Origin: Malacoraja senta
Lineage: Eukaryota
Length of the DNA: 64,000 bases
NCBI GenBank assembly: GCA_038087875.1
Contig: CM075996.1
Span: forward strand, 5,644,001-5,708,000
Reading direction: 5' to 3'
The translations under genes and the position numbers were made by a program. The notes below the pieces were generated by a model that worked only from the letters and a program-made list of their open reading frames with translations, ran no database searches and was not told where the DNA came from. This document shows, one piece after another, positions 16,340 to 16,498 of the stretch. Each line of letters begins with the position of its first letter. Position 1 is the stretch's first letter.

Positions 16340-16498
16340 TCAGCAGGGAAACGCTGGGCGTTGGAGGAAGTGCCACAGGGTGTACGGCCACCTGGTCTTG
16401 GAATTCAGTTGCCGCTTCAGGATGTACGGCAACCTTTGGCGAACGGACCTGTTCAGCCTTCGTTTCCCGTTGTGTCTCCAAGCTTCACACAGCAGGAC
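16340..16498 (-). CDS. Neurotensin/neuromedin N-like precursor, terminal exon (VLLCEAWRHNGKRRLNRSVRQRLPYILKRQLNSKTRWPYTLWHFLQRPAFPC*)
   Basis: Strong (CT)n...CAG acceptor. LPYIL-KR-QL.....R.PY.L mirrors NTS KIPYIL-KR-QLYENKPRRPYIL. AATAAA on the minus strand at 16268-16273. Confidence 0.85.
   Translation of the reverse strand, partial: VLLCEAWRHNGKRRLNRSVRQRLPYILKRQLNSKTRWPYTLWHFLQRPAFPC

Follow-up and report, generated by a model that had tools for sequence, protein, structure and literature searches.

The neurotensin (NTS) precursors used for comparison, seven canonical sequences from monotremes and teleosts, all carry KR-KSPYIL-KR followed by a 13-residue copy ending in RRPYIL-KR, and this double motif was almost invariant from catfish to echidna (7/7). 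Neuromedin N is described as an NTSR1 agonist in the available part of PMC7840143, where the Leu carboxylate is also named as the anchor that holds agonists at the receptor. According to excerpts of the respective papers, affinity for NTS1 benefits from Arg-Arg, or positive charge, at neurotensin positions 8 and 9 (PMC7291367), large neuromedin N signals via the receptor (PMC5573281), and bony fishes and amphibians have been proposed to possess an orphan receptor clade adjoining NTSR and GPR39 (PMC6504862). A ligand table in PMC5207463 names "NTS2", a second vertebrate neurotensin gene, with no sequence, species or locus in the part of the paper that was available.

The DNA analyzed here, referred to as the window, is a stretch of 64,000 nucleotides from Malacoraja senta (assembly GCA_038087875.1, contig CM075996.1, positions 5,644,001 to 5,708,000 of the forward strand). 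Based on its sequence, it carries an unannotated hormone gene of the neurotensin family, one peptide of which has been rewritten and conserved in that form; expression and activity of the gene are predictions. No published description of this gene or of a W-PYIL-W peptide was found in a literature search that covered main texts rather than supplements, and mostly papers open without subscription.

Identification of the last coding exon

The last coding exon, of 52 codons and a stop, was located at 16340..16498 on the minus strand, with its AG acceptor at 16500-16499 and the stop at 16342-16340, and is colinear with the sawfish protein XP_051898809.1. Pro-NT_NN (PF07421) was its sole Pfam family match (E=8.8e-4), with 19.8 bits against a cut-off of 25.3. 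A first-pass annotation had read this region as a neurotensin-family precursor and had left the strand unstated. The letters that it quoted were all present, on the minus strand, and the family assignment is borne out by the sub-cut-off Pfam match together with the elasmobranch protein matches; judged from these sequence comparisons, the neurotensin-family identity of the exon exceeds chance.

The exon encodes N10-G11-K12-R13-R14 (16471-16457; minus strand here and below), of which G-K-R-R at 16457..16468 forms an upstream site whose third basic residue is lineage-specific among the paralogue sequences compared. This is followed by the first copy, the 13-mer L15-L27 ending in PYIL (16418..16456), and by the cleavage site K28-R29 (16412..16417), which is the same in 7/7 paralogue and 7/7 canonical sequences. 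The remaining 23 residues (16343..16411) form a C-terminal peptide of the same length as in the sawfish, with few non-synonymous events, and consist of the former neurotensin copy (12 residues to Leu, W-P-Y-x-L) and an 11-residue tail starting W-x-F-L-x-x-P. The core of this peptide is encoded by AGG TGG CCG TAC ACC CTG TGG CAC (16393-16370), in which ACC (16379..16381, base 16380) is a Thr40 codon private to the window. No dibasic site was found anywhere after the second copy in this exon. A polyadenylation signal, AATAAA at 16268..16273, is the sole AATAAA or ATTAAA within 460 bases downstream of the stop.

Elasmobranch homologues

A search of 1.84 billion protein representatives with the last exon gave three matches. 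Two of these, Pristis pectinata (sawfish) LOC127585424 (XP_051898809.1, annotated as "uncharacterized", E=2.8e-8) and Chiloscyllium punctatum (bamboo shark) chiPu_0019899 (GCC21428.1, annotated as "hypothetical", E=1.5e-4), are probably orthologues of the window gene, as judged from their alignments. The third was an unrelated repeat protein, sharing only the word LPYT with the exon, and was discarded. The last 52 residues of the sawfish protein align gaplessly with the exon and have the same end point; in codons 1-22, identity was 13/22 to the bamboo shark and 11/22 to the sawfish. The two orthologues scored 18.9 and 19.6 bits against Pro-NT_NN (cut-off 25.3).

The Pristis pectinata protein matches the signal exon, exon 2 and last exon of the window gene, including the W-PYIL-W tail, and is without the upstream KR. 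That of Chiloscyllium punctatum, whose model ends where W37 stands, has matches to the signal and last exons. The middle parts of the two models are mutually unlike and have no match in the window. Residues 155-168 of the sawfish model resemble a repeat of which the window contains many copies, so prediction artefacts may account for the middle exon and long N-terminus of that model. A word-based protein search with the last exon gave no candidate among longer proteins, one with the sawfish region returned only itself among 134 candidates, the ESM Atlas held no usable match and the PDB sequence search none.

Further DNA sequences came from four sequencing runs (4 of 14 listed), one each from organisms A-D, each of which gave one contig across 16230-16520. 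These runs were found by exact shared 31-mers, a filter that favours conserved stretches.

Structure of the gene

Both upstream coding exons were located using the sawfish and bamboo-shark proteins as queries. The signal-peptide exon (27949..28020, minus strand) has its ATG at 28009, 20 codons plus one base, AG/GT contexts and a phase-1 donor; by inspection and homology, its 20 hydrophobic codons followed by a GT donor are predicted to encode a signal peptide on an exon of its own. Its identity was 13/20 to the sawfish and 12/20 to the bamboo shark, scores that 0/200 shuffles reached in either case. The second coding exon (59 nt, 18856..18914, minus strand), placed by AG/GT contexts, phase and homology, showed 12/19 identity to the sawfish (0/200 shuffles) and 4/19 to the bamboo shark (17/200 shuffles). 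This contrast points to a cartilaginous fish that is probably a batoid, even though last-exon codons 1-22 lie slightly nearer to the shark. The 61 and 59 coding nucleotides of these exons put the last exon in frame and result in a predicted precursor of ~92 residues. The splice sites of the model are all canonical and in frame, and the ATG lies in a good context.

An exon at 32244..32320 (minus strand, donor GTAAGG, 5' end uncertain) is likely to be a non-coding first exon. It was noticed as a weak tblastn match to residues 86-110 of the sawfish model (E=0.52) in the correct order, and a TATA-like AATAAATA lies near it at 32336-32329 (minus strand). No equivalent of exon 3, the long NTS middle exon, was detected by Pfam Pro-NT_NN in the 60 frames scanned out of 70 candidates below 34 kb. 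When four queries were aligned locally to the introns, 9-66 of 100 shuffles did as well as the best match, so a very diverged exon is possible. A candidate at ~17020-16940 was rejected, as it required a frame change and its scores were reached in 23-98 of 100 shuffles.

The intron that separates the signal exon from exon 2 contains a recent-looking LINE (19484-22153, minus strand) with an 890-residue frame bearing endonuclease and reverse-transcriptase domains, a tRNA-Thr(TGT) gene (25153-25225, plus strand) and a minisatellite (25912-27421, period 22, ~70 copies, 89% matches). Two tRNA-Ala-like calls, one at 55511-55585 and one at 58520-58594, could represent SINE heads. The sole assembly gap (200 N, 40643-40842) lies outside the gene.

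First copy: a proposed extended neuromedin N

The first copy aligns gaplessly with KSPYIL of all seven canonical precursors and is, on this alignment, a neuromedin N homologue; it is without the two basic residues that precede PYIL in neurotensin. A swap of roles, by which the first copy had been proposed to have taken the place of neurotensin, is contradicted by these two features. As the first copy is the neuromedin N homologue, nothing was swapped: one ligand was apparently kept and the other remodelled. The likeness of the 13-mer to neurotensin in length proved incidental. KRR with 13 residues occurs in 2/7 paralogue sequences (the window, the four runs and the two proteins) and 14 residues in 4/7 (three runs and the bamboo shark), while the sawfish has no upstream dibasic site; with 13 residues in only 2/7, the agreement is put down to chance. 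R14 is Ser in 3/4 runs, and the corresponding site reads K-Q in the sawfish and Q-K-R in the bamboo shark.

PYIL-KR-QL was invariant in 7/7 paralogue sequences. The claim that only the first peptide may be an active ligand held to the extent that, in all seven, only the first copy is followed by a KR that could expose a free PYIL carboxyl end. The predicted amidation of a peptide upstream fared less evenly. The G-K-R signal is complete in 5/7 sequences and absent in the sawfish and bamboo shark, so an amidated N-terminal peptide is possible in the window's clade only. The region of this putative peptide is weakly constrained (codons 4-29, omega 0.47-0.63), with L-L-x-E-x-W invariant in the three aligned proteins.

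Conservation of the second copy

W37, W42, F44, L45, P48 and the stop position were kept in all six sequences that reach them, H43 in five, with Pro in the sawfish, which retains W-P-Y-I-L-W, F44, L45 and P48. PYIL of this copy is intact in 5/6, and the residue before W37 is basic in 7/7. The four runs showed no change at W37, W42, H43 or the tail; apart from codon 40, the two differences in codons 36-52 were synonymous. No internal stop or frameshift was seen in 4/4 runs, and all six listed indels fall outside the coding exon.

At codon 40, all four runs, from four organisms, read Ile, as does the sawfish, in agreement with the proposal that Ile is ancestral there. The closest run differs from the window by three substitutions and one insertion in 291 bases and still has Ile. 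With Ile in 4/4 runs, Thr40 would be allelic, private to the species or an artefact of assembly; if real, it would be a tolerated change in the core.

Based on minimal events in five DNA sequences, codons 30-52 showed 2 non-synonymous events against 7.1-9.6 expected (omega 0.21-0.28; Poisson P 0.004-0.027; Fisher P 0.011-0.052), and codons 42-52 no amino-acid change against 4.6 expected. The synonymous rate (0.178) was close to that of the 3' UTR (0.175). Taken singly, the three more distant runs gave P 0.011-0.027, values that are not independent, since the window's branch is common to all. Counts were small (13 coding events), the strictest test was borderline (Fisher P=0.052), and the difference in constraint between the tail and the front of the exon was not significant (P=0.27). 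In a neutral simulation (600 replicates, 0.2-0.6 substitutions/site), six core residues, picked post hoc after inspection, were kept jointly with the stop in at most 1.7%. As the window stands, identity of the 23-residue peptide to the sawfish was 10/23, which falls within the neutral expectation at 0.2-0.3 substitutions/site, and 3/10 in codons 43-52. The tail is among the long exact stretches in two of the three more distant runs, so the choice of runs by 31-mers favoured conservation.

The ongoing decay that the first-pass annotation had seen in this copy is at odds with W37 and W42 in 6/6, H43 in 5/6 and the deficit of amino-acid changes. RRPYILKR or RRPYILRR, which it had expected in orthologues, occurred in 0/6 sequences, none of them from a chimaera. 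Its CpG route to W42 needs an Arg that was not observed; Lys stands there in 7/7 canonical precursors, two base changes from TGG. In the bamboo shark the peptide was apparently lost: the model ends at W37 and, if it is right, the 23 residues are dispensable there. A neuromedin U-like reading of the tail was rejected, since the sawfish is without the Arg and an amidation signal is absent. An antimicrobial role is unlikely with a net charge of +2 to +3 and unconserved hydropathy.

Probable paralogy with NTS and genomic neighbours

The signal exon, exon 2 and last-exon codons 1-22 matched the canonical precursors poorly (scores reached by 3-200 of 200 shuffles), whereas for the signal exon and codons 1-22 0/200 shuffles reached the match scores against the sawfish and/or bamboo shark. 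The simplest reading of these comparisons is that the window gene is a paralogue of NTS and not the ordinary gene. Yun et al. 2015 is presumably the source of the NTS2 listing.

One neighbour is a TEAD gene, the YAP-binding-domain exons of which lie at 6472-12150 (6.5-12.2 kb) on the plus strand. Its whole exons scored best against TEF-1, and two 21-residue pieces, picked by diagnostic residues, scored best against TEF-4 by 0.1-0.8 bit; given its TEF-4-type residues, the gene may be a TEAD2 that evolves slowly. A branched-chain aminotransferase (BCAT) gene (~49700-59400, minus strand) lies upstream of the neurotensin-like gene and in the same orientation; one of its exons, near 59.3 kb, scored 89.9 bits against the cytosolic and 82.2 against the mitochondrial enzyme. 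From human positions, an NTS paralogue that arose by whole-genome duplication would be expected in the TEAD2/BCAT2 block rather than the TEAD4/BCAT1 one, and the TEAD and BCAT scores are mixed on this point; human BCAT1 lies on chromosome 12, as does NTS.

Proposed function and alternative explanations

On balance, it appears probable, if far from secure, that the window carries an old second elasmobranch neurotensin gene providing an extended neuromedin N and a kept 23-residue W-PYIL-W peptide with another use. The precursor of ~92 residues would enter the secretory pathway via the predicted signal peptide and, as in the rest of the family, would be cut by a convertase, here at the single invariant KR, and then trimmed by a carboxypeptidase. 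This cut would free the first copy, with PYIL at its carboxyl end, as a neuromedin N with an N-terminal extension, and this would be the neurotensin-receptor ligand of the gene. Its length would be 13-14 residues with cleavage at the upstream KR, 7 with cleavage at the invariant Arg20 and ~47 with neither. The same cut would release the Gln-starting C-terminal peptide of 23 residues. In the former neurotensin copy, Arg9 and the release site would have disappeared long before the present, ahead of the branching of the sawfish lineage, the W-PYIL-W form being held since, and Thr40 would be a private allele or an assembly error. Uncut, the 23-mer cannot present the Leu carboxylate and should thus not be a classical agonist; its likeliest role would be that of an independent peptide, co-secreted and acting on a target of its own, with a part in packaging or folding about as likely. 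More tentatively, rays and skates may have made a new hormone of it, either a Trp-framed 23-mer with its own receptor of the neurotensin/ghrelin/motilin group or an agonist unmasked by an acid protease, which we regard as conceivable and rather doubtful.

Conservation of the second copy could also be only apparent. It is unlikely, though it deserves weight, that this copy is an old relic in slow decay, its function lost once in an elasmobranch ancestor, perhaps when CpG changes struck the Arg9 codon, and its sequence drifting at present, so that slow fish evolution would account for the seeming conservation and only the first copy would matter. A single CpG transition separates TGG from CGG, and likewise CAC from CGC, which makes an ancient CpG origin of W37 possible; His in the window's clade and Pro in the sawfish are each one step from CGC, and the bamboo-shark model (a protein model only) ends at W37 as CGA-to-TGA or TGG-to-stop would give. 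Thr40, the low identity to the sawfish and the conservative P=0.052 point the same way. These are countered by the 2 non-synonymous events against 7-10 expected at a synonymous rate equal to that of the 3' UTR, by the identical length and stop in the sawfish, and by the Lys that follows PYIL in all canonical precursors (7/7). Aspartic proteases such as those of the cathepsin type prefer bonds between bulky hydrophobic residues. A cut of such an enzyme at Leu-Trp would free a 12-residue W-PYIL-COOH, as xenin is freed from coatomer alpha, and two neurotensin-receptor ligands would then come from one gene, each under its own switch. The PYIL intact in 5/6 sequences, where no convertase could free it, and the basic residue before W in 7/7 would be accounted for, yet F44, L45, P48 and the length beyond the cut are kept as well, which would be needless in a throw-away tail, and position 9, where charge (as at position 8) matters for NTS1 affinity according to the excerpt of PMC7291367, is Trp; a latent second ligand of this kind is accordingly improbable.

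The two remaining readings concern the gene as a whole. That it is the only, ordinary NTS of the species, much diverged and shortened, would fit the cytosolic leaning of the BCAT exon, the location of human BCAT1 on the NTS chromosome and the fact that no further NTS gene of the species came into view, but it is set against a canonical double motif that is almost invariant from catfish to echidna and against the TEF-4 (TEAD2)-type residues of the TEAD neighbour, and we consider it very unlikely. Least credible of all is an unexpressed pseudogene in the window's lineage. Such a loss would agree with the failure to find an exon-3 equivalent, with Thr40 and with the weak constraint on codons 4-29; it is opposed by in-frame canonical splice sites, an ATG in good context and a poly(A) signal, and by a coding exon that is free of stops and frameshifts in all four runs, with the six indels outside it.

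Comparison with known systems

From fish to mammals, the last six residues of neurotensin and their flanking basic sites have hardly changed, and here a duplicate precursor appears to have rewritten them, the rewrite being retained across ray lineages. The gene would be a natural case of tandem peptide copies diverging after gene duplication, lost in one lineage and remodelled in another, and it defines two peptides that are cheap to synthesise and test. If the 23-mer were a new hormone or a masked agonist, one precursor would combine a convertase-released ligand with a second ligand on a different switch.

With canonical NTS, the window gene shares a predicted signal peptide, a last exon with two tandem PYIL copies separated by KR (the second reading PYTL in the window only) and the order of the copies, neuromedin N, KR and then a copy starting with Gln-Leu. 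It differs in the length of its predicted precursor, ~92 residues against 151-168 in the full-length canonical proteins compared; a platypus NTS entry of 93 residues, without the middle exon in frame, has the same short architecture as the window gene model. The KR before the neuromedin N hexapeptide in all seven canonical precursors is R-Q in 6/7 paralogue sequences and R-H in one run. The second copy has 12 residues instead of 13, with Trp for the second Arg, and its Leu is followed by an 11-residue tail beginning with Trp (6/6) where canonical NTS has KR. Xenin, part of coatomer alpha, resembles the 23-mer in that its neurotensin-like end lies buried in a protein that offers no dibasic site, and is reported in the available part of PMC5965858 to be freed by an aspartic protease; its precursor is unrelated to the window gene and offers an analogy for the latent-ligand mechanism only.
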